This document shows positions 4,131-29,189 of a DNA stretch of 32,000 nt, one piece after another (positions within the stretch are counted from its first letter, which is position 1; the number at the start of each line of letters is the position of its first letter). Below the pieces are notes generated by a model. That model had not been told where the DNA came from and searched no databases. It saw only the letters and a program-made list of their open reading frames with translations. The translations under genes and the position numbers were made by a program. This DNA comes from Candidatus Electrothrix yaqonensis (GTDB lineage Bacteria > Desulfobacterota > Desulfobulbia > Desulfobulbales > Desulfobulbaceae), in the NCBI GenBank assembly GCA_047651235.1, contig CP178758.1:3690001-3722000 (forward strand). Reading direction: 5' to 3'.

Positions 4131-4330
4131 GGGGCGCTAAGTCCTATAAAGATAAAGGTATAAGATAAGTACATATCCGGCTGACCGCTGTTCGCTATTT
4201 TTCTATCTCGGCAGAGAGATTACGCTGAAATTCCGTTGCTGTCAATCAACAGTTCATCGGGCAGTGCAGGATGATGCGGTTGCGCACTGCTTTCCCTGTC
4301 CGGCAGAAAATAAATTCAGCATATATTGCA

Positions 4331-6543: not shown

Positions 6544-7479
6544 TCAGCTGCCTTTGTTCAAAAAAGAGGCAAGGTTGATCTTTTTGCCGGACAGATTGAG
6601 TTTTTTCCGGATGTTTTTCCGATGGGTGGCCACAGTCTGGGGAGAAAGCGTAAGCAGCTCGGCAATTTCCTTGGTTCTTTTTCCTTGGCGGATAAGGTTC
6701 AGCACCCGCAGTTCCGTGGGGGTGAGGAGGGTATAAATGTCCTCGCGTTCACAGCTCAGAGGGCGGACAAGGTCAAGCAGATTGCTGCGGATCAGATTCC
6801 TGAGCCGGGCCCGTTCCTCAGCCGGAGCCTGGACTGTCCTGTCAAGGTCGGGCAGGATCAGCCGTTCGATATTCAGCCGCATAATCCTGCCGAGCTTCTT
6901 TTTTTCCTGTTCAATTTCCTGCAGCAGGCGTTTGAGCACAATGTTCGTCTCCTGCAGCTCCTGATTTTTTCTCTCTAGTTCCGCAGTTCGTTTTCGTACC
7001 TCCTTTGCCAGGTTGTTCCGCATACGCTGGAGAGCGAGGTGGGTGCGCAGCCGGGCGAGCAGCTCAATCCTGCTGTATGGCTTGACAATGTAATCAACGC
7101 CTCCTGCCTCAAATGCTCTGACTTTTTCCTGGGGAGAACCGAGACCGCTGAGAAAAAGGACAGGGATATCTGCTGACAGCGGGTCTGCTTTCAGGCGTCG
7201 GCAGACCTCGTAGCCGTCAAGATCCGGCATGACCAGATCAAGCAGGATGATGTCCGGCCTGTTCTCTTTCTTCTGTACGCTCTGCAGGCCTGCCTCGCCG
7301 CTTGCGGCAGTCTGTGCCCGGTAACCGTGTTCTTCCAGGGTCAGTTTCATGAACCGCACATATAAGGCATCGTCGTCGATAACCAGAACAGTCGCGGCAG
7401 CTCCGGGCGGAATATCCCTTCTGTCCTTCGAAACAGACGGTGTCTGCTGTGCGATGTCAACTGAGTGCACGGAATGCAT
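6544..7479 (-). CDS. Response regulator: REC domain, coiled coil, LuxR/FixJ-type HTH
   Basis: The REC domain shows VLVIDDD...ILLDLVMPDLDGYEV...PVLFLSG...KPY. The heptad-like region is KEVRKRTAELERKNQELQETN. The C-terminus LTPTELRVLNLIRQGKRTKEIAELLTLSPQTVATHRKNIRKKL is a LuxR-type HTH. The ORF track extends to 7614. I prefer ATG comp(7479), which is preceded by GGAAAGGGG, because a promoter-like element sits inside the longer extension. Confidence 0.8.
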   Translation of the reverse strand: MHSVHSVDIAQQTPSVSKDRRDIPPGAAATVLVIDDDALYVRFMKLTLEEHGYRAQTAASGEAGLQSVQKKENRPDIILLDLVMPDLDGYEVCRRLKADPLSADIPVLFLSGLGSPQEKVRAFEAGGVDYIVKPYSRIELLARLRTHLALQRMRNNLAKEVRKRTAELERKNQELQETNIVLKRLLQEIEQEKKKLGRIMRLNIERLILPDLDRTVQAPAEERARLRNLIRSNLLDLVRPLSCEREDIYTLLTPTELRVLNLIRQGKRTKEIAELLTLSPQTVATHRKNIRKKLNLSGKKINLASFLNKGS

Positions 7480-7584
7480 GTTTTCCCCTTTCCTCGAAGT
7501 TTTCCAGGCACCGAAATGCTTATTTTTGAGCAGTTTTTTTGAGTAATTATTTCCTGAAAGGATATTTTTTCCACCTCCTGATTC

Positions 7585-7614
7585 ATTGTAACCCGGTGTA
7601 GGATGCCTGGTCAA
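7585..7614 (-). promoter_or_regulatory. Sigma70-like promoter candidate on the minus strand: TTGACC-N18-TACAAT
   Basis: The reverse complement of 7609-7614 is ttgacc and that of 7585-7590 is tacaat. The element is about 100 nt upstream of the preferred response-regulator start. Confidence 0.3.
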
Positions 7615-16700: not shown

Positions 16701-19700
16701 GTTCCAATACGGTGACCCTGACCTTTGATGCGGTGGTGAATGCGCCGACCGGCACGGCGGACGAGTATCTGAATTCGGCCCAGATCACGGCTTCGGACCA
16801 GTACGATCCGGATTCCGATCCGGATTCGGACGAAAACACGGACGATCTCGGCGACGGTCTTCCGGACGACGACGAGGATACGGCGGCGGTGATGCCGGAG
16901 AGCGCGGATCTGAGCCTGGTCAAGGTGGTGAACGATACAACGCCTGCCGTGGGCGACACGGTGACCTTCAGCCTGACCCTGACCAACGACGGGCCGGACA
17001 CGGCCACGAATGTTGCGGTGACGGACGTTCTTCCGGGCGGTTATACCTATGTTTCCGGGAGCATGAGCGGCGGGGACGGGCAGGATCAGAGCGGCGATCC
17101 GACCCTGGTGTGGACGGTGAACAGTCTGTCTGCGGCGGCAGGTTCCAATACGGTGACCCTGACCTTTGATGCGGTGGTGAATGCGCCGACCGGCACGGCG
17201 GACGAGTATCTGAATTCGGCCCAGATCACGGCTTCGGACCAGTACGATCCGGATTCCGATCCGGATTCGGACGAAAACACGGACGATCTCGGCGACGGTC
17301 TTCCGGACGACGACGAGGATACGGCGGCGGTGATGCCGGAGAGCGCGGATCTGAGCCTGGTCAAGGTGGTGAACGATACAACGCCTGCCGTGGGCGACAC
17401 GGTGACCTTCAGCCTGACCCTGACCAACGACGGGCCGGACACGGCCACGAATGTTGCGGTGACGGACGTTCTTCCGGGCGGTTATACCTATGTTTCCGGG
17501 AGCATGAGCGGCGGGGACGGGCAGGATCAGAGCGGCGATCCGACCCTGGTGTGGACGGTGAACAGTCTGTCTGCGGCGGCAGGTTCCAATACGGTGACCC
17601 TGACCTTTGATGCGGTGGTGAATGCGCCGACCGGCACGGCGGACGAGTATCTGAATTCGGCCCAGATCACGGCTTCGGACCAGTACGATCCGGATTCCGA
17701 TCCGGATTCGGACGAAAACACGGACGATCTCGGCGACGGTCTTCCGGACGACGACGAGGATACGGCGGCGGTGATGCCGGAGAGCGCGGATCTGAGCCTG
17801 GTCAAGGTGGTGAACGATACAACGCCTGCCGTGGGCGACACGGTGACCTTCAGCCTGACCCTGACCAACGACGGGCCGGACACGGCCACGAATGTTGCGG
17901 TGACGGACGTTCTTCCGGGCGGTTATACCTATGTTTCCGGGAGCATGAGCGGCGGGGACGGGCAGGATCAGAGCGGCGATCCGACCCTGGTGTGGACGGT
18001 GAACAGTCTGTCTGCGGCGGCAGGTTCCAATACGGTGACCCTGACCTTTGATGCGGTGGTGAATGCGCCGACCGGCACGGCGGACGAGTATCTGAATTCG
18101 GCCCAGATCACGGCTTCGGACCAGTACGATCCGGATTCCGATCCGGATTCGGACGAAAACACGGACGATCTCGGCGACGGTCTTCCGGACGACGACGAGG
18201 ACAATGTCTGTGTGACCCTTGCCTCCCTGCAACTGATCAAGCAGGTGGATCTGACCACGGATACTGCTCCGGAAGATGCAAGCAAGGACGATATCATAAC
18301 CTACACATTCAGGGTGCGGAATACCGGTGCTGAAACGCTGACGGACGTGACTGTAAGCGACCCGCTGCTCACCGGCTTGAGCTGTGATCCCATTCTTTCC
18401 CTTGCCCCGGGTACAACGGTGGACTTCAACTGTACAGGGGGCAACACGTATACGATTACGCAGCTAGATGTGGATAATGGCTATATCGACAACACGGCTA
18501 CAGCCACGGGAACGCCGCCGTGCGGGCCTGATGTGACCTCTTCCGTCGTAGCCCGCGTGAATATCGGCACTACTCCGACCTATGCCGTAGTGAGTTCATT
18601 CAGTGCGTATTTAAATGATAAAAATCAGGTGGTGCTGGAATGGAAGACCTCCAGTGAAACCGGTACGGTCGGTTTCATGCTGGAGCGGCAGAATGAGCGG
18701 ACCGGCAGATATCAGCCGGTCACGAAAAAAATACTGCCCGGTATGCTGACTCCGCCGCACGGCGGCATCTACCGCCTTGTGGATACAAGAGCAAAAGCGG
18801 GTAAGCAATATACCTACCGGGTTGTCGAAGTAGCGGCCAACGATCAGGGCACGGTTTCCGGGCCGTACACGGTGCAGGCCGATGAACCTCTGCCGAAGAA
18901 CAGCCGGATGTTTTCCGGCGGGGCCGGAGGCTACACCCTGACGCATCATAAATTTTCCGGCAGACAGTTCAGGCGTTTTACAGCCCGCAGTAAAGTGCTC
19001 CGTAAATTCGCTGCAAAGCGGAAAAACAGGGCCGGTACCGTGCTGAAGATTCCGGTCTCCCGGAACGGTTTGGTGTATTTGAGCGCTGCGGAGCTGGCAG
19101 CCGCCTCCGACCTTCCGGAGAAGCGGGTGATCAGGCAGGTGAAGTCCGGAAGATGCCGGCTGACCCTGGCAGGGAAGGCTGTTCCGCTGCTCAGGGCCAA
19201 TACCGGTTCCGACCTCTGGTTCTACGGCCGGGCTCCGGAGCGGAGCGACATCGGACAGAATATCTACCTTCTCGATTTCGGGAAAAAAGGCAAGAAAATG
19301 AAGAGTACGCGGGGCCGGGCAAAGAAGGAAGTCTCTGCGGAGCAGTCCTACCCCGCCCGTGTGCGTGCAGAGGAGAATCTGCACCCCTTCCACCTGTATA
19401 TCAATACTCCGGTGCATGATTTCTGGGCCTGGGAACTCCTGTTCGCTCATGATGCCGCCGATGATCCGGCGGGCAGTACTGCTGTTCATCCTGTTGCCGC
19501 GCCGTATCTGACAGGGGAGGGCGATGCGGCGGTTACGGTCAACTTGGTCGGAATGACAGGCCGTGGACCTGCCGGAGTGCCGCTGTACAAGGTGACAGTC
19601 TTTCTGAACGGCACGGATATCGGCACGGCGGAATGGTCGGAAAAGGGCGACTATCAGTTCCGGGCCGATATCCCGGCTGCTCTGCTGCGTGAGGAGGGCA

Positions 19701-21175
19701 ATGAAGTACAGGTCGTTTCGCAGCTGAACAGCGGCGTGACCTACTCGCTGATCTACCTAGACTCCATTGAGCTGGAGTATCTGCGCAGCTACGAGGCGGT
19801 CGATGGAGAGCTGACCTTTTCCGACGCCGGATATGACAGCGTGACGGTCCGGGGGTTCAGCAGCAGCAAGGTGCTGGCCCTTGATGTGACAACGCCGGAT
19901 GCGCCTCGGCGGGTACGGACCCTGCCCGGTAAAAATCAGGCCGGAGAATATACGGTCACTCTGCTGACCGAGCCGGGGCATACGTACTTTGTCACGGAAA
20001 ATCTCAGCCCTGTCTTTGCCGGAGAGCTGAGTGCGGACACGCCGTCGCGGCTGCGCAGGCGCTATAACCGGGCTGATTATCTGATCATTGCGCCGTTGCA
20101 TCTGATGGAGTCGGCACAGCGGCTTGCTGATCACCGGGCATCTGAAGGCCTGAAGGTCATGCTTGTCGATATCGAGGATGTGCAGGATGAATTCAGCCAC
20201 AGCCTGGCGGCTCCTGAAGCGGTGCATGACTTCCTGTCCTATGTCTATACAAACTGGATTCAGGTGCCCCCGCATGTGGCTCTGGTCGGTGCCGGATCCT
20301 ATGATTATAAAAACTACCTTGGTTACGGCTATCCCCTTGTGCCGGCCAAGCTGGCAGCAACCCCTGACGGTTTCTTCCCGTCCGACAATGTCCTGGCGGA
20401 TGTTGTCGGCAATGACGGGGTGCCTGAATTTGCGATAGGTCGGATACCTGCGGTGGACAGCACCGAGCTTGACCGCTATACTGAAAAACTGATACACTTT
20501 GAACAGGATCAGGCGGAACGCGACACCGGTACGGTAATGACGCTGGTGACGGATATGCCTGATCCGTCTGCCGGAGATTTTGCGGCCGGTGCGGACAGAG
20601 TTGCGGAACTGGTGTCGGCACAGGGAGTTGCGGTCAACCGGCTTGCCGCAGATGCGCTGGGTGTGAACGGGACGCATGACGGGATTATCAATGCGCTGCA
20701 GCAGGGAGGCGGCATTCTGCATTATATCGGTCACAGCTCGATGGTGGCCCTGGGCCGGAGCAGTGCGCTGCTCACTGCAGATGAAGTTGACGCCATGCCC
20801 GATATCGGTGTGCCTATGCTGATGGTCAGCATGACCTGCTCTGCCGGGGCCTTCGGCTATCCGCCCATGGACAGTATCGGCGAGACCGCAGTGCTGCGGG
20901 CGGACGGAGCAGCGGTGGGCTTTTTCGGGGCCTCCGGTCTGTCCGAAAACCATCTTGCCGACATAATGGCGAAAGGCTTCTACCGCAGCCTGTTTGATCC
21001 GGAGAATGTGAACCCGAGGATCGGCGATGCAGTTGTCGGCGCGAAACAGTATTATTCTGCTCAGGGCGGGGAACGGTCCGTTCTGGATATTTACAATCTG
21101 CTCGGTGATCCGGCACTGCACGGGCCGGTTGCAGTACCGGACAATAAACCAACGGACAAGATCAGGACGGATTGA
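7769..21175 (+). CDS. Giant (about 4468 aa) secreted repetitive surface/adhesin-like protein with a C-terminal peptidase C25 domain
   Basis: A single uninterrupted ORF. The signal-like segment is IRFTAAVFLLFTVLFTLFVQAAPVRAAA. The alternative start ATG 7802 has AAGGA 8 nt upstream. An SdrD-B/Cna-B-like segment (GGVHVYLFRDTTGDG...TNSNGEYSFSGQPDGTYWVVV) follows. Several dispersed DUF11-type domains carry the pattern L.K......G..vTYT....N.G......v.DxLP.G.tyv. Then come 12 tandem 147-aa units, and a C25 domain at the C-terminus. Confidence 0.88.
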   Translation: MFTEQKVRTSFMLSIYLHIAPHIAGSLSRIIRIRFTAAVFLLFTVLFTLFVQAAPVRAAANDIQGRVMEDGNADASLDDAVDTPLGGVHVYLFRDTTGDGIPNTGDDKVASTVTNSNGEYSFSGQPDGTYWVVVESADFARSGGTMEQTYGGIGALTDPDGKELTPAEPRTTAGPAFGGRRMEVPDGFSSDDPNNLEPAEHVIQVVLDSVTTHTAVDFGFGFVKGLAAGYSEFYIPTQVTGTGTEPVVDTFGEVDGGIWNILRDLDPDPAITCGMHYIISVTASTDSTTIYYDHWEDGYNFDPLNPSTADETVVRNSGEVAVFESGSIPENRGTDVYYDGRDRIFVAGGPAVVTLAIYPECVDGPPGSGSVYNAAWEILPVKPLQTKYTVPVGEGMTGNGAIDFQQTFLTIQSAADNNTITVNDPVHGVLTKTLQQGEVFDVRHTSPGTVVTGTEPLQVHALAGFQWPTAASEADGITIFPETLMDNEYYNPMGSYGDSSGDGGSNSEYATELYINNPNDSPITIQWEDASGTGTAKIPAGETRSYSEISGHFVPVDSASYLKSVGGEKFWAIGQSGVSTADVTGDTAIGDNTHTFFDGGFSLVPEYLLRSDYYLSWAPGDADPVPGTNASAAYVTAVNDGTEIFVDFDGDGEPDPFDIDGTIVTSYVLNRLESIAIRNPDSPFSLTGAHIWSNGPTSLVWAPYAKTASYVSPSLDCDYTGSPLPLDWMDAVLSVIKTTDSTALRPEANQIANFSLSIPAYKAVDNVVVRDTLPLGWNYEAGSSTATVTNSSGTFTSTADPGRSGDGLTTREVLTWDLDSLIAAGANDLDPTDYIFITFTARTNANVKPGYNQNDVEVTGTRDPGGETQTFTTTDKKAVYVTPLTIDKDTSTPVVVMNGEATYTIALENTDPDNDLTAVRATDLLPAGFTYISSSYSVIDNDPAGDGSGIGDTIPGDAAAPTTEPASGATDLTWGDWTLGNGDKLIITFIVNVGNVPGTYDNTASADATRGPDTFTVTDIGTSGNDQGTPEGEDPEEDEDVTIEPDINMDKISEVEAGVLASPGEIITYTVNIENPTGGPLNNIVVTDAVPPGTTYVPGTVTIVEGHKLDPPTVIAEEDFAVAGLSGGTGWIGDWKVLGGEADFDGGDVQINNGRLLIQDNENGGEGAYREVDITGYDSVELNFDYIGRNLVDPGDDQYVIIDISTDGTTWTELARVDESGVGSMQLDITGFIDTDTQIRFLTSSSNANRAGSFFDNIEIIGTKTDFINVPGHDPADLVIAADGYDLAANDGVDGSGPDFMQITYQVRVDDPLAAGIISIDNTAGVTSDEFMGVYKEDSESTPVFIQPEKLLVTTSEPSTGEVDGSERVTIGEMVRYRIAARIPEGSFPNFQLKDNIPSGLQFLDDGTARFSFVSNGGGITSSTLTCINDSGDAYDLISLPSAAVDCVFPAPPAGAISGGPFGSDVDVTFSLGDLTNSDSDEDAEYMVVEFNALVLNVNESPEINQGVDNTTGASIANFRPNTATLYVDDVQEGDPSDIVTVDIAEPAITDLAKTVSPGPYLPGSTVTYTLTFSNTATGNNATTAFDLVLTDTLDANLTPGTVTWLSTTQTDPCAGGTAFNHSESATGQNVTVNVSCLDPGNRVTITIEATIKDGTPGGTISNTGDVTYTSLPGEQGNCGAAPFVCSADIDERDGDDGAGSDDTVLDNYADSDTVPLDVEESADLSLVKVVNDTTPAVGDTVTFTLQVTNNGPNTATNVAVTDVLPGGYTYVSGSMSGGDGQDQSGDPTLVWTVNSLSAAAGSNTVTLTFDAVVNAPTGTADEYLNSAQITASDQYDPDSDPDSDENTDDLGDGLPDDDEDTAAVMPESADLSLVKVVNDTTPAVGDTVTFSLTLTNDGPDTATNVAVTDVLPGGYTYVSGSMSGGDGQDQSGDPTLVWTVNSLSAAAGSNTVTLTFDAVVNAPTGTADEYLNSAQITASDQYDPDSDPDSDENTDDLGDGLPDDDEDTAAVMPESADLSLVKVVNDTTPAVGDTVTFSLTLTNDGPDTATNVAVTDVLPGGYTYVSGSMSGGDGQDQSGDPTLVWTVNSLSAAAGSNTVTLTFDAVVNAPTGTADEYLNSAQITASDQYDPDSDPDSDENTDDLGDGLPDDDEDTAAVMPESADLSLVKVVNDTTPAVGDTVTFSLTLTNDGPDTATNVAVTDVLPGGYTYVSGSMSGGDGQDQSGDPTLVWTVNSLSAAAGSNTVTLTFDAVVNAPTGTADEYLNSAQITASDQYDPDSDPDSDENTDDLGDGLPDDDEDTAAVMPESADLSLVKVVNDTTPAVGDTVTFSLTLTNDGPDTATNVAVTDVLPGGYTYVSGSMSGGDGQDQSGDPTLVWTVNSLSAAAGSNTVTLTFDAVVNAPTGTADEYLNSAQITASDQYDPDSDPDSDENTDDLGDGLPDDDEDTAAVMPESADLSLVKVVNDTTPAVGDTVTFTLQVTNNGPNTATNVAVTDVLPGGYTYVSGSMSGGDGQDQSGDPTLVWTVNSLSAAAGSNTVTLTFDAVVNAPTGTADEYLNSAQITASDQYDPDSDPDSDENTDDLGDGLPDDDEDTAAVMPESADLSLVKVVNDTTPAVGDTVTFSLTLTNDGPDTATNVAVTDVLPGGYTYVSGSMSGGDGQDQSGDPTLVWTVNSLSAAAGSNTVTLTFDAVVNAPTGTADEYLNSAQITASDQYDPDSDPDSDENTDDLGDGLPDDDEDTAAVMPESADLSLVKVVNDTTPAVGDTVTFSLTLTNDGPDTATNVAVTDVLPGGYTYVSGSMSGGDGQDQSGDPTLVWTVNSLSAAAGSNTVTLTFDAVVNAPTGTADEYLNSAQITASDQYDPDSDPDSDENTDDLGDGLPDDDEDTAAVMPESADLSLVKVVNDTTPAVGDTVTFSLTLTNDGPDTATNVAVTDVLPGGYTYVSGSMSGGDGQDQSGDPTLVWTVNSLSAAAGSNTVTLTFDAVVNAPTGTADEYLNSAQITASDQYDPDSDPDSDENTDDLGDGLPDDDEDTAAVMPESADLSLVKVVNDTTPAVGDTVTFSLTLTNDGPDTATNVAVTDVLPGGYTYVSGSMSGGDGQDQSGDPTLVWTVNSLSAAAGSNTVTLTFDAVVNAPTGTADEYLNSAQITASDQYDPDSDPDSDENTDDLGDGLPDDDEDTAAVMPESADLSLVKVVNDTTPAVGDTVTFSLTLTNDGPDTATNVAVTDVLPGGYTYVSGSMSGGDGQDQSGDPTLVWTVNSLSAAAGSNTVTLTFDAVVNAPTGTADEYLNSAQITASDQYDPDSDPDSDENTDDLGDGLPDDDEDTAAVMPESADLSLVKVVNDTTPAVGDTVTFSLTLTNDGPDTATNVAVTDVLPGGYTYVSGSMSGGDGQDQSGDPTLVWTVNSLSAAAGSNTVTLTFDAVVNAPTGTADEYLNSAQITASDQYDPDSDPDSDENTDDLGDGLPDDDEDNVCVTLASLQLIKQVDLTTDTAPEDASKDDIITYTFRVRNTGAETLTDVTVSDPLLTGLSCDPILSLAPGTTVDFNCTGGNTYTITQLDVDNGYIDNTATATGTPPCGPDVTSSVVARVNIGTTPTYAVVSSFSAYLNDKNQVVLEWKTSSETGTVGFMLERQNERTGRYQPVTKKILPGMLTPPHGGIYRLVDTRAKAGKQYTYRVVEVAANDQGTVSGPYTVQADEPLPKNSRMFSGGAGGYTLTHHKFSGRQFRRFTARSKVLRKFAAKRKNRAGTVLKIPVSRNGLVYLSAAELAAASDLPEKRVIRQVKSGRCRLTLAGKAVPLLRANTGSDLWFYGRAPERSDIGQNIYLLDFGKKGKKMKSTRGRAKKEVSAEQSYPARVRAEENLHPFHLYINTPVHDFWAWELLFAHDAADDPAGSTAVHPVAAPYLTGEGDAAVTVNLVGMTGRGPAGVPLYKVTVFLNGTDIGTAEWSEKGDYQFRADIPAALLREEGNEVQVVSQLNSGVTYSLIYLDSIELEYLRSYEAVDGELTFSDAGYDSVTVRGFSSSKVLALDVTTPDAPRRVRTLPGKNQAGEYTVTLLTEPGHTYFVTENLSPVFAGELSADTPSRLRRRYNRADYLIIAPLHLMESAQRLADHRASEGLKVMLVDIEDVQDEFSHSLAAPEAVHDFLSYVYTNWIQVPPHVALVGAGSYDYKNYLGYGYPLVPAKLAATPDGFFPSDNVLADVVGNDGVPEFAIGRIPAVDSTELDRYTEKLIHFEQDQAERDTGTVMTLVTDMPDPSAGDFAAGADRVAELVSAQGVAVNRLAADALGVNGTHDGIINALQQGGGILHYIGHSSMVALGRSSALLTADEVDAMPDIGVPMLMVSMTCSAGAFGYPPMDSIGETAVLRADGAAVGFFGASGLSENHLADIMAKGFYRSLFDPENVNPRIGDAVVGAKQYYSAQGGERSVLDIYNLLGDPALHGPVAVPDNKPTDKIRTD
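12932..18201 (+). repeat. Tandem array, about 11.95 x 441 bp (147 codons, in frame), inside the giant CDS
   Basis: Unit starts (agcgcggatctgagcctggtc) fall at 12932, 13373, 13814 and so on to 17783, exactly 441 bp apart. The units translate identically except for a 50-bp variant patch in units 1 and 6. Each unit is a DUF11 domain (ADLSLVKVVNDTTPAVGDTVTF...VTDVLPGGYTYVSGS) plus an acidic DPDSDPDSDENTDDLGDGLPDDDED linker. Confidence 0.95.
20063..21123 (+). other. Peptidase C25 (gingipain-like, clan CD) domain of the giant protein
   Basis: YNRADYLIIAPLHLMESAQRLADHR...VMLVDIEDVQDEF...VALVGAGSYDYKN...IGRIPA is the C25 N-terminal pattern. The candidate catalytic His is in LHYIGHSS (codon 20732-20734, residue 4322). 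The candidate Cys is in VSMTCSAGAF (20837-20839, residue 4357). The 35-residue spacing is similar to the roughly 33 residues in RgpB. Confidence 0.7.
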
Positions 21176-21471
21176 TGGTGCAGCTCGATAGTATTTACAG
21201 ACAGGCCGACAATATCGTCACCCGCAGGATTATGGATGAAACCCTGCTGGTGCCCGTTTCCGGTGAGCTTGCCTCCATGGAGGAACTGTATACCCTCAAT
21301 GAGACCGGGGATTTCATATGGCAGGCGTTGGACGGCGTTCGTCCTCTTTCCGAGATCAGGTGCCAGCTTGAAGAGCAGTATGACGCACCGGCAGAGGAGA
21401 TTGAAGCGGATCTGCTGGAAATCATAAGCGGGCTGGCCGATGCCGGGCTGGTTACTTCTGTTGGAGGATGA
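21175..21471 (+). CDS. PqqD-family protein (RiPP recognition element / peptide chaperone)
   Basis: 98 aa. ...RRIMDETLLVPVSGE...LYTLNETGDFIWQALDGVRPLSEIRCQLEEQYDAPAEEIEADLLEIISGLADAGLV fits the PqqD pattern (LN.tg..iW..ldG..t..ei...l...y......e.D...fl..L...gl). The ATG overlaps the giant gene's TGA (TGATG), and AGGA lies 7 nt upstream. Confidence 0.8.
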   Translation: MVQLDSIYRQADNIVTRRIMDETLLVPVSGELASMEELYTLNETGDFIWQALDGVRPLSEIRCQLEEQYDAPAEEIEADLLEIISGLADAGLVTSVGG

Positions 21472-22628
21472 CGACTTTGGAAACAGACTGCACCGGCAGA
21501 GAACCTGATAATTCTGATGATCTGGCTCGTTATTTTGCCAGAGCTGCGCAGGCGAGGACACCGCTGGCTGCTACGTTCGAGCTGACCCGGCGGTGCAACT
21601 TCCGTTGTGTCCACTGTTATCTTGGTGATCAGCAGGCAATTCGTCAGCATCGCCATCAGGAACTGGACACGGACAGCGTTATCAGGCTGCTTGATGAGAT
21701 GGTGGAGGCCGGAACCCTGTTTCTTACCCTGACCGGAGGGGACCCCATGCTGCGGCCTGATTTTGTCAGGATTTACGCACATGCGGTCCGCATCGGTCTG
21801 TTGGTTTCAGTGTATTGCAACGGCTCACTGATCACAGAGGAGATTACAGAGGTATTTGTTCAATATCCTCCAAGGATCGCTGAAATTACTTTGTACGGTG
21901 CAACCCGGAAGACCTTTGAGACGATAACACAGCGCCGGGGGAGCTATGCAGACTGCATGAAAGGTATTGCTCTGCTGCACAGGGCAAAGGTGCGGCTGCG
22001 GCTGAAATCCATGGCCATGACGCTGAATTACGAAGAACTGCCTGCCATGCGGAAGATAGCCGGGGATTTGGGCCTGTCATTTCGGCATGACTGCTCCGTC
22101 ATTCCCGCTCTTCCTCATGAAGATAATGGCAGTCGGATAAACATTCGGGATACCGGAAAAAACGGCCTGCGGGAGACCTTGGGTTTCCGCCTTGAACCTG
22201 AGCAGGCTGCGGCAGTGGATTTCGGGGCAGCCGAAGTAAAGAAAAAACTGCAGGAGCTGACGGCTGAGAAAGGAGCTGCTGCAGAGCCGTCAACAAAATT
22301 GTACCAGTGCGGGGCAGGGCAGGCATCATACCATATTACCTCGTACGGCAGAATGCAGCCCTGTCTCATCACGCTTCGGCCTTCTGTTGATCTCGTCGCC
22401 GGGGAACAGCGAATTGCAGACGGTTGGAATACGTTGTGCGCACAGGTTGAGGAACAGACAGTAACAACTGATTTTCCCTGTATCGAATGCAAGGACAGCA
22501 AGTTATGTACGGGCTGCCCAAGCAGATTCTTTAGAGAAACAGGCTCGCCGGAGGAACCGCCTTCCTTTTATTGTCATTATGCGGCATGCCGCAGGCGAGG
22601 AAGCTCAAAGGAAACAGGGCTTCAATAA
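21468..22628 (+). CDS. Radical SAM / SPASM-domain peptide-modifying enzyme
   Basis: CNFRCVHCY gives CX3CX2C (Cys codon at 21594), and TLTGGDPMLRPDF is present. The C-terminus CGAGQASYHITSYGRMQPC gives CX12GX4C, and CIECKDSKLCTGC gives CX2CX5CX2C plus later Cys residues, which is a SPASM-type pattern. ATG 21468 overlaps the PqqD stop (ATGA). An alternative start is TTG 21477, 9 nt after GGAGG. Confidence 0.85.
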   Translation: MTTLETDCTGREPDNSDDLARYFARAAQARTPLAATFELTRRCNFRCVHCYLGDQQAIRQHRHQELDTDSVIRLLDEMVEAGTLFLTLTGGDPMLRPDFVRIYAHAVRIGLLVSVYCNGSLITEEITEVFVQYPPRIAEITLYGATRKTFETITQRRGSYADCMKGIALLHRAKVRLRLKSMAMTLNYEELPAMRKIAGDLGLSFRHDCSVIPALPHEDNGSRINIRDTGKNGLRETLGFRLEPEQAAAVDFGAAEVKKKLQELTAEKGAAAEPSTKLYQCGAGQASYHITSYGRMQPCLITLRPSVDLVAGEQRIADGWNTLCAQVEEQTVTTDFPCIECKDSKLCTGCPSRFFRETGSPEEPPSFYCHYAACRRRGSSKETGLQ

Positions 22629-22727: not shown

Positions 22728-22916
22728 ATGAAAGAACAACAACACGGCACAGCTCCTGTTAAGCAGCAGGAGGAGACCGAAGGAATCGTGCAGAAACAGC
22801 CTTATGAAAAACCCCGGCTTGACAGGGTGAAATTATTTGCCGATCAGGTCTTGGCTTCCTGTTCAGGGGGGGCAATGGCTCCTCCATGCGGCATTTTTGA
22901 CCCTCTTGCATCATAA
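22728..22916 (+). CDS. Candidate RiPP precursor peptide (62 aa)
   Basis: MKEQQHGTAPVKQQEETEGIVQKQPYEKPRLDRVKLFADQVLASCSGGAMAPPCGIFDPLAS. It sits between the rSAM/SPASM and kinase genes on the same strand. It has a polar leader-like N-terminal half, YEKPRL (YxxPxL, 22803-22820), two Cys in a Gly/Ala/Pro-rich tail, and a terminal Ser (22911-22913). The RBS is weak (GGA about 11-13 nt upstream) and no homology can be checked here. Confidence 0.45.
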   Translation: MKEQQHGTAPVKQQEETEGIVQKQPYEKPRLDRVKLFADQVLASCSGGAMAPPCGIFDPLAS

Positions 22917-22926
22917 CAGGCTTGAT

Positions 22927-23862
22927 TTGAGCAACGCAGGGCATCCTGTTGTAGACAGCGTATACAGTATAGGGGGGGTATTTGTTACGCTTAACTCGGA
23001 ACGTTATCTGGTGCCGGAAGACTCTTCCGCTGCAGAGAACAGTGTCTTTGTTTATCCTGCAACTGCAGAATATGCAGCTGCTTCAGCTGCAGTCCCCTGT
23101 ATTTATGTATATATAGCTGCTTTACAGCAGAGATCTTCTCCAGCAGTAGGCGAAAAAATATTTTCTCAGCAGCGGGCATGTCTCTACAGGGCTGAAAACG
23201 GCTACATCCAACAGTATTATCTGGATGATAAAAAACAGGAGATCCTCTGGAAACTCGCAATTGACCATGAGTTTTCCCGGTTTAACTATTTTCTCTGCGC
23301 AGATAAGGTTAACCGGGAGGAGTCGGTCCGGCTTGATCCCTGGAAACTGGCATCCACTCTTTTTCTCTTGCAGCACAGTTTTATCAATCACCAGGGCCTG
23401 ATCATTCACGCTGCCGGAGGCTCTGTTTCCGGGAAAGGGCTGGTCTTTTCCGCTCCTTCCGGCACCGGAAAATCCACCCTCAGCAGGCTGTTGCTGCACT
23501 CTCCGGATAACCGGCTTTTCAGTGAAGAGCGTCTGATCATCCGCTCTGTTGAGAACAAGTGGCAGGTATGGGGAACCCCCTGGCATGGGGAAGGGAACAT
23601 TGCCCGAAATGAATCCGCCCCGCTCTCCGCGCTGGTTTTTCTCCGACAGGCCCAGAAAACAGAAATTACCCGACTGTCTCCGGCGGACGGGCTGCACCGG
23701 CTGGTGCAGACAGCGTCCATTCCTTGGTACAGTAAGCAATGGACAGAAAAAGGGCTTGCTCTCTGTGAACGATTGATTCAGGATATCCCGATCTTCGAGC
23801 TTGCCTTCCGGCCGGACCGGACTGCAGTGCAGGCTGTGGAGCGTCTTGCAGCGGAGTTGTAA
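22927..23862 (+). CDS. HPr kinase/phosphorylase C-terminal-domain-like P-loop protein (HprK-related kinase)
   Basis: GLIIHAAGGSVSGKGLVFSAPSGTGKSTLSRLL matches the HprK C-domain pattern (H...v...g.GvLi.G.SG.GKS). The stop is secure but the start is uncertain. The ORF track opens at TTG 22837, overlapping the 62-aa ORF by 80 nt. No in-frame ATG exists. TTG 22927 lies just after the peptide's stop and keeps the N-terminal YSIGGVFVTLNS segment. Confidence 0.7.
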   Translation: MSNAGHPVVDSVYSIGGVFVTLNSERYLVPEDSSAAENSVFVYPATAEYAAASAAVPCIYVYIAALQQRSSPAVGEKIFSQQRACLYRAENGYIQQYYLDDKKQEILWKLAIDHEFSRFNYFLCADKVNREESVRLDPWKLASTLFLLQHSFINHQGLIIHAAGGSVSGKGLVFSAPSGTGKSTLSRLLLHSPDNRLFSEERLIIRSVENKWQVWGTPWHGEGNIARNESAPLSALVFLRQAQKTEITRLSPADGLHRLVQTASIPWYSKQWTEKGLALCERLIQDIPIFELAFRPDRTAVQAVERLAAEL

Positions 23863-23897
23863 ATTCTAAACTCAACGGAAAAGTGAGGCAGGGGCGT

Positions 23898-24467
23898 ATG
23901 GAACACAATTTTTTTCTGCTGCGGATATTTTTTCCTCTCTTCCTGTTCTGCTTTTCTCCGGTTGCAGCAGCAACAGAACTGCTCTCAGAGTCATTTTCCG
24001 CCTGTGAACTCCCTGAAAACTGGGAAGTGGAAAATCTTGGCGGTGACTGTCGCTGGATATTTGACAGCAACAGGCAGAACGAGACCGGCGGAGAGGGTTG
24101 TTATGCGATGGCCAGCAGTGAGGACTGCAGTTCAGGGACAAGCATGGATACAGTACTTTTCGTTTCTCCTGTTGACTGCTCCAGGTTGACAGAAACAACT
24201 CTTTCTTTTCAATACGATGCGTATGAACAGCTGAATGCCAGCACCTTTGCTGTAGAAATTTCTCTTGACGAAGGAAACGACTGGTCTCAAATCTGGGTTA
24301 GAAACCAGTCCGATCCCGGACCAAAAACAGCTGTCTTGGATATCAGCGCAGAAGCAGACAGGCGACCTTCCGTGTTGATCCGGTTTCGCTATACAGCTTC
24401 TGCAAAGGATTGGTGGTGGCAGGTTGATGATGTACAAATTTCCGGCAAGAAAGGAAAGAACAGGTGA
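23898..24467 (+). CDS. Secreted beta-sandwich protein (MAM / choice-of-anchor-J-like, tentative)
   Basis: ATG 23898 is preceded by GAGGCAGGGG (the ORF track opens at GTG 23883). The signal peptide is MEHNFFLLRIFFPLFLFCFSPVAAA. The pattern ESF....LPENW.....GG...W......GGEG.Y......LSFQY......EISLDEGNDW...LIRFRY......WWQVDDVQISG supports the fold call, which rests on pattern memory only. Confidence 0.55.
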   Translation: MEHNFFLLRIFFPLFLFCFSPVAAATELLSESFSACELPENWEVENLGGDCRWIFDSNRQNETGGEGCYAMASSEDCSSGTSMDTVLFVSPVDCSRLTETTLSFQYDAYEQLNASTFAVEISLDEGNDWSQIWVRNQSDPGPKTAVLDISAEADRRPSVLIRFRYTASAKDWWWQVDDVQISGKKGKNR

Positions 24468-24993
24468 ACTGGCTCCTTTTTCTGCCTGCGATGATCAGTC
24501 GGCAACAGCAGCCTCTATGAGTGTGTCATCCGTTATCAGTATCCGGGATCAGGGTGCGCTTGATCTGGTACGCTCTCTGCTGAAACAGGGAATATCTGTC
24601 CGCATCCGGGTTTCCGGCAGCTCTATGCGGCCGCTGCTCAGCGGTGGAGAAATCATTGAAGTGGCTCCCCCTGCAGCCCGATCACCCAAAATTGGGGAGA
24701 TCCTTTTGTTCTATGATCAGCAGGGGAACCCGCTCGTTCATCGCCTGATCAGACGTCGTTGTTGCAACAAGGTCCTTTATCTGCAGACCAAGGGTGATGC
24801 CTGCGCAGGTTGTGATGGTTTTATTCCGGCAGGGCAGGTTCTCGGCCGTGTTCAGCGTATCATTATCAAGCATAATACTATTGATCTGCAGCACCCGGTC
24901 ATGCATTTTCGTTCCTTCTTTATTGCTCTCCGAAGTCTGATATTGTATTATTATCTGCAGTTCTGCAATAGACTGTCTTCTGCATCTGATTAA
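24427..24993 (+). CDS. S24/S26-family serine peptidase, SipW-like (S26B signal-peptidase fold)
   Basis: VSGSSMRPLLSGGEIIEV...GEILLFYD...LVHRLI...LQTKGDACAGCD parallels the SipW/archaeal-type signal peptidase I motifs SGSMxP...GD...V, HR and TKGDNN..D. The start is uncertain: ATG 24427 overlaps the upstream gene by 41 nt, and the alternative is ATG 24517. There is a hydrophobic C-terminal segment FRSFFIALRSLILYYYLQF. Confidence 0.65.
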   Translation: MMYKFPARKERTGELAPFSACDDQSATAASMSVSSVISIRDQGALDLVRSLLKQGISVRIRVSGSSMRPLLSGGEIIEVAPPAARSPKIGEILLFYDQQGNPLVHRLIRRRCCNKVLYLQTKGDACAGCDGFIPAGQVLGRVQRIIIKHNTIDLQHPVMHFRSFFIALRSLILYYYLQFCNRLSSASD

Positions 24994-25226: not shown

Positions 25227-25272
25227 TTCATATTAGAGGAGCTTGAAAATTATTCGAGACAGGGAGGAAAAA

Positions 25273-26031
25273 ATGAAAAGTCCGTCGTTCATAAACTGCA
25301 ATGTAATATTTTTGACTGTTCTGCTGACTGTCTGTTTTTGGGGGACGACAGCCGCCGAAGCGCAGACCGGTTCTATAAAAGGTTATGCGAAAGATAAGGA
25401 CAGTGGGGACGGTATACCGAATATACATGTGCGGGTATGCATTGATCCATGCCTTAAGCAGAGCGATTGGATTACCGAGGCAGAAGATACACAGACGGAA
25501 CCTGTCGGATACTATGAAGTGACGGGACTTCCTGCAGGAACATATAAAGTGAGATATCTCACGTATAGCATTGATACTCCTTCGTATGTGGCTCAATGGT
25601 ACAACAGCTTGGATTATGCTGATGCTGAAGATGTAGATGTTAAAACCGATCAGGCTGTTAGCCTGGACGATGTGCTGCTTGAGCAGGGTGTAAGCATTAC
25701 AGGGACGGTGACAGATGCCGACTTTGCCCCTATTGCAGAGGTGAGAGTATATGCGTACAAGGAAGGTGACAGGGATAACTGGGTGGCCTCTGCTATAATA
25801 ACTGAACCGGACACAAATTACACTCTTTCCGGTTTGGCTCCGGGGATCAACTATAAAATATATTTTATGGCCGACGGGTATATCAGCGAGTGGTATGATG
25901 ATAAACGCGGTTCTGTCGAATCGGTTCCTGCCGGTGCTGCTGATGTTCTTAGCGGCACTACCGATATCGATACTGTCCTGAATAAACGAGTATCTCTTGT
26001 GCCGGTATATTATCTGCTGTTACTGAAGTAG
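25273..26031 (+). CDS. Secreted protein with two carboxypeptidase-regulatory-like (CarboxypepD_reg) domains
   Basis: ATG 25273 is preceded by AGGGAGG (25261-25267); the ORF track opens at 25243. The signal peptide is MKSPSFINCNVIFLTVLLTVCFWGTTAAEA. The two domains are GSIKGYAKDKDSGDGIPNIHVRV...GYYEVTGLPAGTYKVRY and VSITGTVTDADFAPIAEVRVYAY...YTLSGLAPGINYKIYF. A short hydrophobic tail follows: VSLVPVYYLLLLK. Confidence 0.7.
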   Translation: MKSPSFINCNVIFLTVLLTVCFWGTTAAEAQTGSIKGYAKDKDSGDGIPNIHVRVCIDPCLKQSDWITEAEDTQTEPVGYYEVTGLPAGTYKVRYLTYSIDTPSYVAQWYNSLDYADAEDVDVKTDQAVSLDDVLLEQGVSITGTVTDADFAPIAEVRVYAYKEGDRDNWVASAIITEPDTNYTLSGLAPGINYKIYFMADGYISEWYDDKRGSVESVPAGAADVLSGTTDIDTVLNKRVSLVPVYYLLLLK

Positions 26032-26191: not shown

Positions 26192-27140
26192 AACTGATGT
26201 TACGCATTGGCGCCAAATATATTATCTTGGAGGCAATGAATACAAAATATATTGACCTCTACACGGATTATCTTGCCGTGACGTTCGGATACGCCACGGC
26301 AACCGGCCTGTCGGACATGCTGCGGATGGCGAGTATACCTCTATGGATTTATGGAAACAGGTCAGACCGGTCATCCGCGAAGTGGAAGCCGATGACGGTG
26401 TGCTGATATTCGACGATACCATTCAGGAAAAACCGTGAATGGATGAAAATGACCTTATCTGTCGGCATTCTGATCACTGTAAATGGAAAAACGCCAAAAG
26501 AATCAGTCTACTGAACTGCGTTTATCATGTCGATTGGCTTGAGCTGCTGCGTTCAATGGTTAATACTTGTATGAGGAACCGACTGCGGTTTACCCGGATT
26601 CTGTCTGATTCATGGTTCAACTCTGTTGAAAATATGGAGCATATCGAACTCGGACATAACAAGGAGTTCATCGGTGCATTGAAAAACAACCGACTCGTCG
26701 CGTTGACTGAGGAAGACCGTAAAAACAAAAACCGTATAGATCAGATCAAATGGTCAGAACAGGAAGCCGTTATCGGTTGGCTGAAAGGACTGAAGTTTCC
26801 AGTTCGTCTCGCCCGGCAGATCTTTACAAACAAAGACGGAAGCACCGGCATCCTGTATCTCGCCTGCAGCCAAGTTTACGACAATCTATAGAAAACGATG
26901 GAAAGTCGAGGTGTTTCACAAGTCATTGAAGTCGAATGCGGCGTTATCCAAGTCTCCTGCGCGCCGTGTAAATGCGCAGGGCAATCATATTTTTGCCTCC
27001 ATTGTTGCTGTGTTTAAAATGGAATGCCTAAAAATCAAAACAAAGATGAACCACTTTGCCCTGAAGTCGAAGCTCTATCTGAAAGCCGTCCGTTCAGCAT
27101 TTGATGAGCTTCAGAAACTCAGGACTGCGTAACATCAGTT
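26192..27140 (+). mobile_element. Decayed IS701/IS4-superfamily insertion sequence (about 950 bp)
   Basis: It has perfect 15-bp terminal inverted repeats: AACTGATGTTACGCA at 26192-26206 and its reverse complement at 27126-27140. The interior encodes transposase fragments in three frames. I found no clear target-site duplication. Confidence 0.7.
26236..27132 (+). pseudogene. DDE transposase pseudogene (frameshifted, in-frame stop, internally deleted)
   Basis: The fragments are MNTKYIDLYTDYLAVTFGYATATGLSDML, then (frame change) ...VRPVIREVEADDGVLIFDDTIQEKP*MDENDLICRHSDHC...ILSDSWFNSVENMEHI..., then (frame change) RKRWKVEVFHKSLKSNAALSKSP...NHIFASIVAVFKMECLK. DDT, DSWF and RWKVEVFHKSLK are the DDE-type motifs. 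The total length is too short for an intact enzyme. Confidence 0.65.
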
Positions 27141-28425
27141 GTTAACTTATCGATCTTTTTTTCTGTCATTTACAGCACAGGTTTTCTCCGCAGGAGCTTC
27201 TTTGCTGCTTAATGTTATGATCGCTCGAATGTTGGGTGTCTCAGGAACAGGTCTTTTTTTTCAAGGTATGATGATTGCCGGTATCGGCTCTGCTGTTGCC
27301 CGCTTGGGGATGGATAATGTTATCACACGCTTTATAAGCGTTTATTTTTCCGAGAATGATTTTGACAACATGGTACGTGTTGTACGTACCGGGCTGAAAG
27401 CAGGCTGTGCAGTGACTTTTGTTCTTTTCTTTCTGTATGCAACGGTCAGCCTGCTGACCCCTTTTTCTTCTTTTCAGTTTATGGTATTATCCATACCATT
27501 TCTGACTTTTTCAGCTATATATTCCTCGGCGTTGCGCGGCATCGGAAAAGCAGTATTGTTTACCCTTATACAGAGAGGTTTCGTCCCGACTGTCTTTATC
27601 CTGCTCTTACTTGTTCATAATGTTTTACAGCAGGAAATGATTCCGGAAAAAAGTTTTCAGCTTTATTTCGTGGCATCTTTGTTGGTCGCAATATTTTCCT
27701 GGGCTCTATGGAGATTTTTTTTATCAGGTCGCGATTCAAATTCAGCAAAGCATTTCAGCTCAGATCATTTTACCTGGACTACCCTCTGGCAGGGAGGAGT
27801 TCAGCATACCTATGTGGTCTCTCTCCTGAACTTGGCTGTATTTCCTTGGGCAGGTATTTTCTTTCTCGGAATATTTTCCAGTCCTGAACAAGTTGGTCTT
27901 TACGGAGTTGCTTGGCGTCTGGCAACTCAATTATCTTTAATCCTGATCGCTTCAGGAAACGTAGCTGCACCTGAATTTGCGAAACTCCATGCACAGGGGA
28001 AAATACGGCAACTTGAAGCAGCTATCCGAAAAACCTCACTGACTGTTCTGCTTGTTTCTGCCGTTTCGGCCTGTATAATGATAGGTGCCCACCGGGAAAT
28101 CCTTGCTTTGTTCGGAAAAAAATTCATAACAGCTTCTGGTGTTTTTTTTATCATATTGACAGGACACATAATCCGCTCCTCTGCAGGGAATACAGGAATG
28201 CTGCTCATGATGACAGGACACGAGCGGGAGGTGAAAAAAACGCTTCTTATCTCGTCATCAGTTCTGATTTGCTGTACCATTCTGCTTAGTTGGATATGGG
28301 GGGCGCCGGGAGCAGCTTGGGCCAATACGATTGCTTTGAGTGTACAGAGCGGTTGTCTTATCTACTATTGTATTGCAATTCTTCATGTAACCCCGCTTCC
28401 TTATTGGAAATATATATCTCCTTAA
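27139..28425 (+). CDS. Polysaccharide/oligosaccharide flippase (Wzx/MOP-superfamily-like) membrane protein
   Basis: 428 aa and highly hydrophobic with many predicted helices. The N-terminal ...LLLNVMIARMLGVSGTGLFF is a typical Wzx pattern. The only available start (TTG 27139) lies inside the IS right inverted repeat. Confidence 0.65.
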   Translation: MLTYRSFFLSFTAQVFSAGASLLLNVMIARMLGVSGTGLFFQGMMIAGIGSAVARLGMDNVITRFISVYFSENDFDNMVRVVRTGLKAGCAVTFVLFFLYATVSLLTPFSSFQFMVLSIPFLTFSAIYSSALRGIGKAVLFTLIQRGFVPTVFILLLLVHNVLQQEMIPEKSFQLYFVASLLVAIFSWALWRFFLSGRDSNSAKHFSSDHFTWTTLWQGGVQHTYVVSLLNLAVFPWAGIFFLGIFSSPEQVGLYGVAWRLATQLSLILIASGNVAAPEFAKLHAQGKIRQLEAAIRKTSLTVLLVSAVSACIMIGAHREILALFGKKFITASGVFFIILTGHIIRSSAGNTGMLLMMTGHEREVKKTLLISSSVLICCTILLSWIWGAPGAAWANTIALSVQSGCLIYYCIAILHVTPLPYWKYISP

Positions 28426-28448
28426 AAAGATTCTGCTCACAGGATTAT

Positions 28449-29189
28449 ATGTACCTCTCAGATACTACAGATATAATAATTAAACCGGTACGTTTATTTG
28501 AAAAAGAATTTACATTTATCCTTGATAAGGAAATTAAAGATATTGTAAAAAATATTAACGATAAAACATTATGGATCGTCACCTTTAATTTTCAAATGCT
28601 TGGGAAATGTAGTGAGGATGAAGGATATTTATCGTTACTCTCGTCAGCTGATCTTTTTACATGTGATGGAGCTCCTATTGCGTGGATTGTTACTTTTCTC
28701 ACGAGATATAAAGTTCCTCGTATTACAGGAATACAAATAGTAGAATATATAATAAAGAATACAACCAAATCTTTTGGTATTATTGGAGGAAGATCACATA
28801 CAGCAGCACTTTCCAATATGAAAGTGGATTTTAGTCGAGTTCTATTTATTTTTAACGGAGATATTAATCACAATTCTAATAAGACAATAAGTAATTTCGC
28901 AGATTCTATCAAAGCAACAAAACCAGAATATGTTTTTGTTGCACTCGGAATAGAAAAACAGGATATTGTATGTAAATATTTAAAAGAAACTGGAGTTAAA
29001 TCGATTTATATAGGAGTTGGAGGTACGTTTGAAATATTAGCTGGTGAGCAAAAAAGAGCTCCAGAATGGATTTCAATTATAGGAATAGAATGGTTCTTCA
29101 GATTTATTCAAGAACCAAGAAGATTATTTAAACGATATTTTATAGATTACCCTAGAGGCATTTATTTTTATCTAAAAAATCGTCTTTAA
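28449..29189 (+). CDS. WecB/TagA/CpsF-family glycosyltransferase
   Basis: ATG 28449 has AGGA upstream; the ORF track opens at 28290, overlapping the flippase. The C-terminus ALGIEKQDIVCKYL...IGVGGTFEILAGEQKRAPEWISIIGIEWFFRFIQEPRRLFKRYF matches the conserved WecG/TagA motif (G.P.QE.w.........GvGg.fd..aG...RAP.w.......EW..Rl..eP.R...R). Confidence 0.75.
   Translation: MYLSDTTDIIIKPVRLFEKEFTFILDKEIKDIVKNINDKTLWIVTFNFQMLGKCSEDEGYLSLLSSADLFTCDGAPIAWIVTFLTRYKVPRITGIQIVEYIIKNTTKSFGIIGGRSHTAALSNMKVDFSRVLFIFNGDINHNSNKTISNFADSIKATKPEYVFVALGIEKQDIVCKYLKETGVKSIYIGVGGTFEILAGEQKRAPEWISIIGIEWFFRFIQEPRRLFKRYFIDYPRGIYFYLKNRL

Follow-up and report, generated by a model that had tools for sequence, protein, structure and literature searches.

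This analysis concerns a small open reading frame (ORF) in a 32,000-nucleotide stretch of the genome of Candidatus Electrothrix yaqonensis (contig CP178758.1, positions 3,690,001 to 3,722,000, forward strand). The whole stretch is called the window, and all coordinates refer to it. The ORF at 22728–22916 probably encodes the precursor of a RiPP (a peptide made by the ribosome and modified after its translation). It belongs to a widespread, unnamed gene cassette and would be matured in four steps by a PqqD protein, a radical S-adenosylmethionine (rSAM)/SPASM enzyme, a ScmC-family protein and an S26 peptidase homologue. The peptide gene is invariably linked to genes for a discrete PqqD, one rSAM/SPASM enzyme and a ScmC-family protein, and usually also to genes for a C25 and an S26 protein. 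The gene and its parts are as follows.

22728–22916 (+): precursor peptide gene, 62 amino acids (aa) plus stop; cable-bacteria two-Cys subtype of a large family
22728–22856 (+): predicted leader, residues 1–43; boundary predicted from the conservation profile
22803–22820 (+): YEKPRL, a YxxPxL-type element and putative docking site for the RiPP recognition element (RRE; PqqD), based on family conservation and the lasso-leader motif
22857–22913 (+): predicted core SCSGGAMAPPCGIFDPLAS with Cys45, Cys54 and Ser62, based on the conserved Cys columns and the terminal residue

The ORF starts with ATG at 22728 and stops at 22914–22916. Its translation, MKEQQHGTAPVKQQEETEGIVQKQPYEKPRLDRVKLFADQVLASCSGGAMAPPCGIFDPLAS, was identical to the 62-aa peptide quoted in a preliminary description of the locus. 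The leader has a basic and polar N-terminus, beginning with MKEQ as in other Electrothrix copies, followed by the stretch P-YEKPRL-x4-LFADQVLA. As described earlier, YEKPRL (residues 26–31) fits the YxxPxL element, and the rest of the lasso leader consensus is absent, with both Gly and Thr missing from the leader. The two Cys of the tail are residues 45 and 54, and the C-terminal residue is Ser62; both features had been read correctly. The only acidic residue of the predicted core is D58. No Asp or Glu was found 7–9 residues past a core start at 43 or 44, in agreement with the earlier reading.

The length of the ORF says little, as 80 ORFs that reach 40 aa overlap the 12 kb around it. The significance of this ORF therefore comes from conservation, not from length. 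Promoter and terminator scans around 22728–22916 gave nothing exceeding background. It had been feared that automated gene callers could suppress the ORF. This was not the case: the ORF is listed by NCBI as ACL93V_17170 (100% identical, annotated as a hypothetical protein in the cable bacterium Candidatus Electrothrix sp. YB6), and hence gene callers had not suppressed it. A second assembly carries a variant of the peptide with 87% identity. Judged by its conservation in sequence and position, the ORF is a genuine gene that codes for a leader-plus-core peptide.

Loci were sampled by a scan with a profile of the downstream kinase-like protein, with one genome per species. This resulted in 36 loci from at least seven phyla. 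The hosts were cable bacteria (Electrothrix, Electronema), other Desulfobulbaceae, Desulfobacterales, Nitrospirota/Thermodesulfovibrionia, Verrucomicrobiota, Planctomycetota, Lentisphaerota, Anaerolineales and Gammaproteobacteria. In essentially all 36 loci, the kinase homologue was directly preceded, on the same strand, by a small ORF of the family (tblastn and a regular expression for the leader motif). The refuting condition named in the preliminary description, orthologous loci lacking such an ORF, thus does not hold. The regular expression gave about five spurious matches elsewhere in the six frames of the 36 loci. In an alignment of 44 peptides from the loci, M1, Y26, P29 and L36 were invariant, and A38, L42, C45 and C54 were conserved in at least 90%. 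Within the leader motif, Y26 and P29 were invariant across the family, the Leu was conserved in 91%, and Leu, Ile or Val was found at +5 in ~97%.

The family is large. A profile search of a collection of 5.8 billion proteins (word-indexed) found 755 proteins at E≤0.01. All of them lack a name as well as a Pfam domain. Among 1.84 billion representatives at 50% identity, an exhaustive HMMER search found 1034 proteins at E≤0.001, of which 194 were at E≤1e-10. Nearly all peptides from both searches were ~50–80 aa long. The window peptide and the 44 family members matched no model in Pfam or NCBIfam.

Most family members share a common architecture. In the majority type (n=248), the sequence is Y-E-K-P-R-L-R-x-I-E-L-A-A-E-E-V-L-A-x-G-C-K, where P, C and K reach 100%. 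A loop of 13–15 residues rich in Gly, Ser, Pro, Thr and Ala comes next, and C-x4-5-C-x3-G-S-COOH closes the peptide. The core of this type thus has three Cys, compared with two in cable bacteria. The distance from the Tyr to the first Cys was 20 in 253 of 263 sequences. The terminal residue was Ser in 118 and Thr in three of the best 121 proteins, and Ser in 135 and Thr in four of 144 further representatives; Ser or Thr ends ~97% of the family. The terminal Ser was preceded by Gly in 94%, and a Cys was located at a fixed 5–6 residues upstream of it. Leader positions were conserved at 85–100%. In the core, conservation was restricted to the Cys (in the three-Cys type also the Lys and the terminal Gly-Ser), and the Gly/Ser/Pro-rich loops between the conserved Cys were hypervariable in length and sequence. 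A conserved leader combined with hypervariable core loops is the classic leader/core pattern of RiPPs. The earlier proposal of a leader/core peptide handled by the flanking enzymes is therefore supported by family-wide conservation and synteny.

The window peptide belongs to a cable-bacteria minority subtype. Its features are LFADQV[LM], a distance of 19 from the Tyr to the Cys, a pair of Cys spaced by 7–9 residues, the absence of Lys and, in most cases, Ser at the end. Eighteen of the 24 cable-type copies end in Ser, and the exceptions all came from two-precursor loci (L006, L007, L008 and L010). Two precursors, one in the gap between PqqD and rSAM and one in the gap between rSAM and kinase, were present in several Electronema-type loci; another locus (L004) carries two in tandem. 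A divergent second precursor gene between PqqD and rSAM was seen in the Electronema-type loci L006, L007, L010, L011 and L013. One locus (L023, 5419–5700) contains a relic peptide of the family with an intact YEKPRL leader and zero Cys. It was also the sole locus without rSAM, PqqD or C25 families in the ORF clustering, and it looks like a decayed cassette. The absence of Cys from a peptide without an rSAM partner is small co-variation evidence that ties the Cys to the rSAM enzyme.

The conserved cassette consists, in this order, of the C25 protein, PqqD, the rSAM/SPASM enzyme, one or more peptides, the ScmC-family protein and an S26 protein without a transmembrane segment. The partners of the peptide gene in the window are as follows.

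18575–21175 (+): conserved C-terminal ~850 aa of a 4468-aa secreted protein (gene 7769–21175) with a Peptidase_C25/PorU-like domain (Pfam C25, 6e-65)
21172–21471 (+): discrete PqqD-family protein, putative RRE/peptide chaperone (Pfam PqqD, 1.1e-16; at least 23 loci)
21468–22628 (+): rSAM/SPASM enzyme that carries CNFRCVHC and, at the C-terminus, a SPASM-type pattern of seven Cys (33 loci)
22927–23862 (+): ScmC-family (PF27840) HprK-like P-loop protein, putative peptide kinase (TTG start; homologue alignment, AlphaFold 2 (AF2) model and Foldseek)
24424–24993 (+): SipW/Sec11-type S26 peptidase homologue, candidate leader peptidase (likely start near 24517; 24 loci)

Four look-ups that started from the peptide side gave the same set, and independent Pfam calls named Peptidase_C25, PqqD, Radical_SAM and PF27840 ScmC in all four. 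An S24/S26-like Pfam call was present in one of these loci, and two others had an unannotated ORF of similar size at that spot. In one of the four, the C25 gene was located 3' of ScmC rather than 5' of PqqD. The PqqD, rSAM and kinase flanks named in the preliminary description were all conserved; the C25 domain and the S26 partner had been missed. The recurrent neighbours 'c7' and 'c8' were considered as cassette members and dismissed, as they are MnmG and HtpG, unrelated housekeeping proteins.

The PqqD protein matched the ScmD and lasso-PqqD models of NCBIfam below their cut-offs (ScmD: 25 vs 100 bits). The rSAM enzyme has a CxxxCxxC motif and the C-terminal pattern C281..C299..C337xxC340x5C346xxC349..C368. 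Its closest solved relatives by sequence were PqqE, which was the best PDB sequence match, and SkfB. The curated maturase models scored far under their cut-offs (StsB: 74 vs 625 bits, AlbA: 65 vs 850, PapB: 60 vs 340), and the ScmE and ScmF models reached 62 and 65 bits with a cut-off of 400. The sequence of the rSAM enzyme does not reveal which reaction it catalyses. A single rSAM gene was present in the window, and the same was true of every locus examined.

The start of the downstream kinase gene determines whether it overlaps the precursor gene. As stated previously, the longest ORF of the kinase frame (341 aa), from an in-frame TTG at 22837, overlaps the precursor ORF by 80 nt; the true start, however, is 22927. 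The NCBI annotation (311 aa, ACL93V_17175) corresponds to the TTG at 22927, and ~120 listed homologues of 295–325 aa align from residue 1 of this start at 96–100% coverage. There is therefore no overlap with the precursor ORF. In one locus (L016), a DDE transposase is inserted between the peptide and kinase genes.

The kinase-like protein was assigned to PF27840 'ScmC' in precomputed Pfam calls. Its best NCBIfam match was ScmC (TIGR04249; 34 vs 125 bits), and the HprK-related kinase families A and B also scored under their cut-offs. An AF2 model (predicted local distance difference test score of 86.9) was compared to known structures with Foldseek. It matched ATP-dependent phosphoenolpyruvate carboxykinases and the C-terminal domain of HprK/P with E values of 3e-6 to 7e-4. 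A fold of this class is what would be expected for an HprK-like protein. A search of its profile against PDB sequences gave generic P-loop matches only. Among the homologues, His161 and S178, G181, K182, S183 and T184 (S-G-x-G-K-S-T) were invariant. His161 is located 21 residues ahead of the Walker Lys. The lasso-peptide kinase BsfK has the same spacing (H148...K169) (PMC10368454). Kinase activity of the ScmC-family protein is plausible.

The S26 protein (~155–185 aa) is found 3' of the kinase in 24 loci and is related to archaeal/SipW-type signal peptidase I. The alignment of its homologues contains the motifs SM..P, HR and KGD. A hydropathy analysis found no N-terminal transmembrane segment in any of the 24 homologues, and the protein is therefore probably soluble. 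For the same reason, a membrane signal peptidase that serves solely the secreted neighbours is less likely.

The C25 protein is far larger in the window than its conserved part. In 29 loci, the upstream gene shows homology to the final ~850 residues of the 4468-aa protein (ORF clustering). Its stop overlaps the start of PqqD. The C25 region also matches the PorU sortase models, under their cut-offs, and an alignment to gingipain R showed that the catalytic His/Cys dyad is kept. The 4468-aa protein has an N-terminal signal-like hydrophobic segment and 14–16 DUF11 repeats. DUF11 is now 'CLIPPER' in Pfam, an isopeptide-bond domain (PMC12617251). Inside the gene, twelve tandem units of 441 bp with 99% identity, coding for DUF11/'CLIPPER' domains, extend from 12928 to 18201. 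Repeats of such similarity suggest that the region has expanded recently or is assembly-sensitive. Phantom ORFs of 120 aa also arise from them on the minus strand, one every 441 bp.

We propose the following four-step maturation. The PqqD protein would bind the leader via Y26, P29 and L31 and the amphipathic LFADQVL stretch, in the same way as the B1 RREs of lasso systems bind YxxPxL. It would then hand the core to the rSAM/SPASM enzyme, which would act on or through the conserved Cys. Enzymes of the rSAM/SPASM kind that act on peptides most often form thioether cross-links, and intramolecular cross-links of this type are the most likely product here. In the third step, the ScmC-family protein and ATP would phosphorylate the C-terminal Ser with the leader still attached, as PadeK and PsmK do. 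Both the thioether and the phosphorylation are proposed by analogy. Finally, the soluble S26 peptidase would cut the leader after V-L-A and release the ~19-aa core SCSGGAMAPPCGIFDPLAS. Leader positions 15–17 of the family are conserved (V in 92%, L in 91%, A or G in 91%). For cutting off the leader, the S26 protein is the strongest candidate, and V-L-A matches the -3/-1 rule of the S26 family.

The steps draw on several known systems, of which the phosphorylated lasso systems (PadeA/PadeK, PsmA/PsmK, BsfA/BsfK) are one. Common to both are a YxxPxL element ~17 residues from the predicted core, a discrete PqqD-type RRE and an HprK-like P-loop protein whose His precedes the Walker Lys by 21 residues. 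Lasso leaders carry YxxPxL at -17 to -12 (PMC10368454). In the family of the window peptide, the element is located 17 residues before the predicted core, and Val is found where lasso leaders have Thr, Ile or Val (-2). Like the window peptide, the precursors of these systems end in Ser, which their kinases phosphorylate before cleavage (PMC6993621, PMC10368454). PadeK and PsmK use the leader-bearing precursor as substrate, and the phosphate stays on the peptide (PMC6993621). The differences are in the remaining parts. The cassette lacks a cyclase, a B2 peptidase and an Asp/Glu acceptor, and its leader lacks the consensus Gly and Thr. Instead, it has an rSAM/SPASM enzyme and conserved Cys, and the kinase carries S-E-E versus D-D.

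By name, the cassette stands closest to the SynChlorMet (SCM) cassette, although the matches failed the curated cut-offs. The SCM cassette is composed of ScmC, ScmD, ScmE and ScmF (NCBIfam TIGR04248–TIGR04251), a description that follows the model names. Both systems bring together rSAM/SPASM and proteins related to HprK and to PqqD, and PF27840 is named 'ScmC', as is the best NCBIfam match. However, one rSAM gene is present here compared with two in SCM (ScmE and ScmF), and the NCBIfam scores are far under the equivalog cut-offs. To our knowledge, C25 and S26 peptidase partners are not part of SCM.

Sactipeptide and ranthipeptide systems (AlbA, SkfB, CteB, PapB) share with the cassette an rSAM/SPASM maturase, an RRE and conserved Cys in a variable core. 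The StsB, AlbA, SkfB and PapB models match the rSAM enzyme, and SkfB is among the closest structures. Here, in contrast, the RRE is separate, there are only two or three Cys, a kinase-like protein and a terminal Ser are present, and the scores are under the cut-offs. The pyrroloquinoline quinone (PQQ) and mycofactocin systems (PqqA/D/E; MftA/B/C) are alike in their small peptide, the discrete PqqD-type chaperone, the rSAM/SPASM enzyme and key residues near the C-terminus. They differ from the cassette, which has a hypervariable core, multiple precursors per locus, and other invariant residues and accessory enzymes. For the protease, SodX, an S26 protein of nickel superoxide dismutase maturation (TIGR02754), is also a signal-peptidase-like enzyme and removes a short propeptide from the N-terminus. 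SodX cleaves after a V-x-A-type site. It matches the S26 protein of the cassette only distantly (E 0.005, under the cut-off), and the substrate proposed here is a prediction.

Several observations weigh against the proposed pathway. Each of the best NCBIfam matches of the rSAM enzyme (heme/NirJ, mycofactocin, sactipeptide and ranthipeptide maturases) falls far short of its cut-off. In the ScmC-family protein, the Asp-Asp pair 17–18 residues past the Walker Lys is replaced by S199-E200-E201; Glu may stand in for Asp at this site. One or both copies lack the terminal Ser in several Electronema two-precursor loci. The cable-type leader at times ends in Q, E or N and not in A, G or S, which makes a poor S26 site, and the C25 peptidase rivals the S26 peptidase for the role of leader removal. 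No exporter was conserved among the loci; an ABC exporter was found in one locus only (L018). Moreover, the window and its closest homologue (L001) are too close for a ratio of non-synonymous to synonymous substitution rates, with three synonymous and five non-synonymous codons and one in-frame 9-nt indel.

Four alternatives were weighed against this pathway. We assign a low probability to a precursor of a cofactor or prosthetic group in the manner of PQQ or mycofactocin, or to a peptide handed or attached to the linked C25/PorU-like protein. In that case, nothing would matter beyond the invariant Cys and the Gly-Ser at the end, and the C25 transpeptidase-like domain would use the product or anchor it at the surface. 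A PqqD and an rSAM/SPASM enzyme acting near the C-terminus of a peptide are the PQQ/mycofactocin pattern, and mycofactocin and PqqE are among the matches. The linkage to C25 is tight across phyla, with the His/Cys dyad intact and the C25 stop overlapping the PqqD start. No dedicated exporter or immunity gene is conserved (ORF clustering found no conserved immunity gene in the cassette loci), and cable bacteria have several paralogous cassettes. However, hypervariable loops between the Cys are typical of natural-product cores and unlike cofactor precursors, and many loci encode two different precursors. Attachment to the C25 protein would also have to cross compartments, as this protein has a signal-like segment and the maturation enzymes look cytoplasmic. 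It is similarly unlikely that phosphorylation serves for activation only. The peptide would still be a precursor, which makes this a variant of the four-step pathway, but the final product would lack the phosphate. Elimination of the Ser phosphate would give a C-terminal dehydroalanine, followed by a lanthionine-type ring via the Cys or, on hydrolysis, a C-terminal amide on the preceding Gly. Lanthipeptide synthetases of classes II–IV use phosphorylation for such activation, phosphorylation and elimination are used by LanL/LanM, and thiopeptides obtain a C-terminal amide from dehydroalanine. A terminal Ser that is near-invariant (occasionally Thr) with Gly before it in 94%, a Cys at a fixed distance of 5–6 residues and a kinase-like P-loop protein in the cassette would all suit such chemistry. 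Neither a lyase/elimination domain nor a LanC-like cyclase was found in the conserved cassette (Pfam/NCBIfam, ORF clustering), and the closest characterised kinase relatives, PadeK and PsmK, leave the phosphate on the peptide (PMC6993621).

The other two alternatives are hardly credible. A paeninodin-type lasso precursor was suggested by YxxPxL, by the beta-branched Val at the lasso Thr/Ile/Val(-2) position, by a discrete PqqD with weak lasso-PqqD NCBIfam matches, and by the HprK-like protein together with the C-terminal Ser. But the cassette genes of the window (Pfam and NCBIfam scans) and those of four related loci (precomputed Pfam calls) contain no Asn-synthetase-like cyclase and no B2 transglutaminase-like peptidase, and no acceptor Asp or Glu is present at core positions 7–9. 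An rSAM/SPASM enzyme is present instead, and the true lasso clusters that adjoin the cassette in two loci (L038 and L039) look different. The lasso peptide is effectively refuted. The chance that the ORF is spurious, and its sequence the 5' end or leader region of a kinase gene starting at 22837, is just as remote. The in-frame TTG at this position does give a 341-aa ORF. The homologues of ~295–325 aa, however, align from the 22927 start, NCBI annotates 311 aa, and conservation across phyla is in the frame of the small ORF and not in that of the kinase. An N-terminal extension of the kinase from 22837 is thus ruled out, since the homologues start at 22927.

Further genes surround the cassette in the window, two of which recur in related loci.

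23883–24467 (+): secreted choice-of-anchor J domain protein, found with the cassette only in Electrothrix-type loci
25243–26031 (+): CarboxypepD_reg/SdrD_B-domain protein, frequent in cable-bacteria loci (14 loci)

Just past these accessory genes, a fragment of an IS701-family transposase is located at 26439–26891 (150 aa, model positions 129–231 of 318). Transposases near some other loci are unrelated to the cassette. Further downstream (27139–29189) are a polysaccharide-biosynthesis flippase-like gene and a WecG/TagA-family glycosyltransferase. Directly 5' of the giant gene, the window encodes a STAND/AAA-type NTPase of 741 aa (4271–6496, +) and a LuxR-type response regulator (6544–7614, -), which are possible regulators of the locus. 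On two Desulfobacteraceae-type contigs, a separate lasso-like cluster is located ~2 kb downstream of the cassette (L038: 8858–14984, L039: 6890–13016). Its genes are those for Hpr_kinase_C, Transglut_core3, NTP_transf_5, a second PqqD, a methyltransferase and an ABC transporter. In another locus (L040), an NTP_transf_5 gene and an additional PqqD gene were also seen near the cassette.

Years ago, bioinformatic work already singled out cassettes that combine rSAM/SPASM and an HprK-related protein, as the SCM and HprK-related families. We know of no substrate peptide or chemistry assigned to them. Pfam and NCBIfam hold no model that covers the peptide family or the six-gene cassette. Our literature searches likewise found no description of either, but many subscription papers were outside their coverage, and an earlier description is possible. 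By analogy, the system would operate as an rSAM RiPP pathway that depends on an RRE and has a leader and a tailoring kinase of the lasso type. The window supplies a well-conserved substrate family with a YxxPxL leader, a fixed Cys pattern and a terminal Ser. The set of candidate enzymes in the window is complete too, down to a soluble leader protease that resembles signal peptidases, and makes the system accessible to tests by heterologous expression. The generalisation to the family is of more interest than the single ORF of the window.

The tie to giant C25/PorU-like surface proteins across phyla hints at a role beyond that of a diffusible antibiotic. A broader reading, which we consider speculative and rather improbable, is a new broad RiPP class: a Cys-cross-linked, Ser-modified peptide tied to giant isopeptide-domain C25 surface proteins, either attached to them or as a cofactor. 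It would cover ~1000 precursor clusters at 50% identity. The multiple copies of the cassette in cable bacteria are of ecological interest. If this broader reading is true, the sulfur-rich product of their multiplied two-Cys cassettes could serve periplasmic or surface structures specific to the lifestyle of these bacteria.

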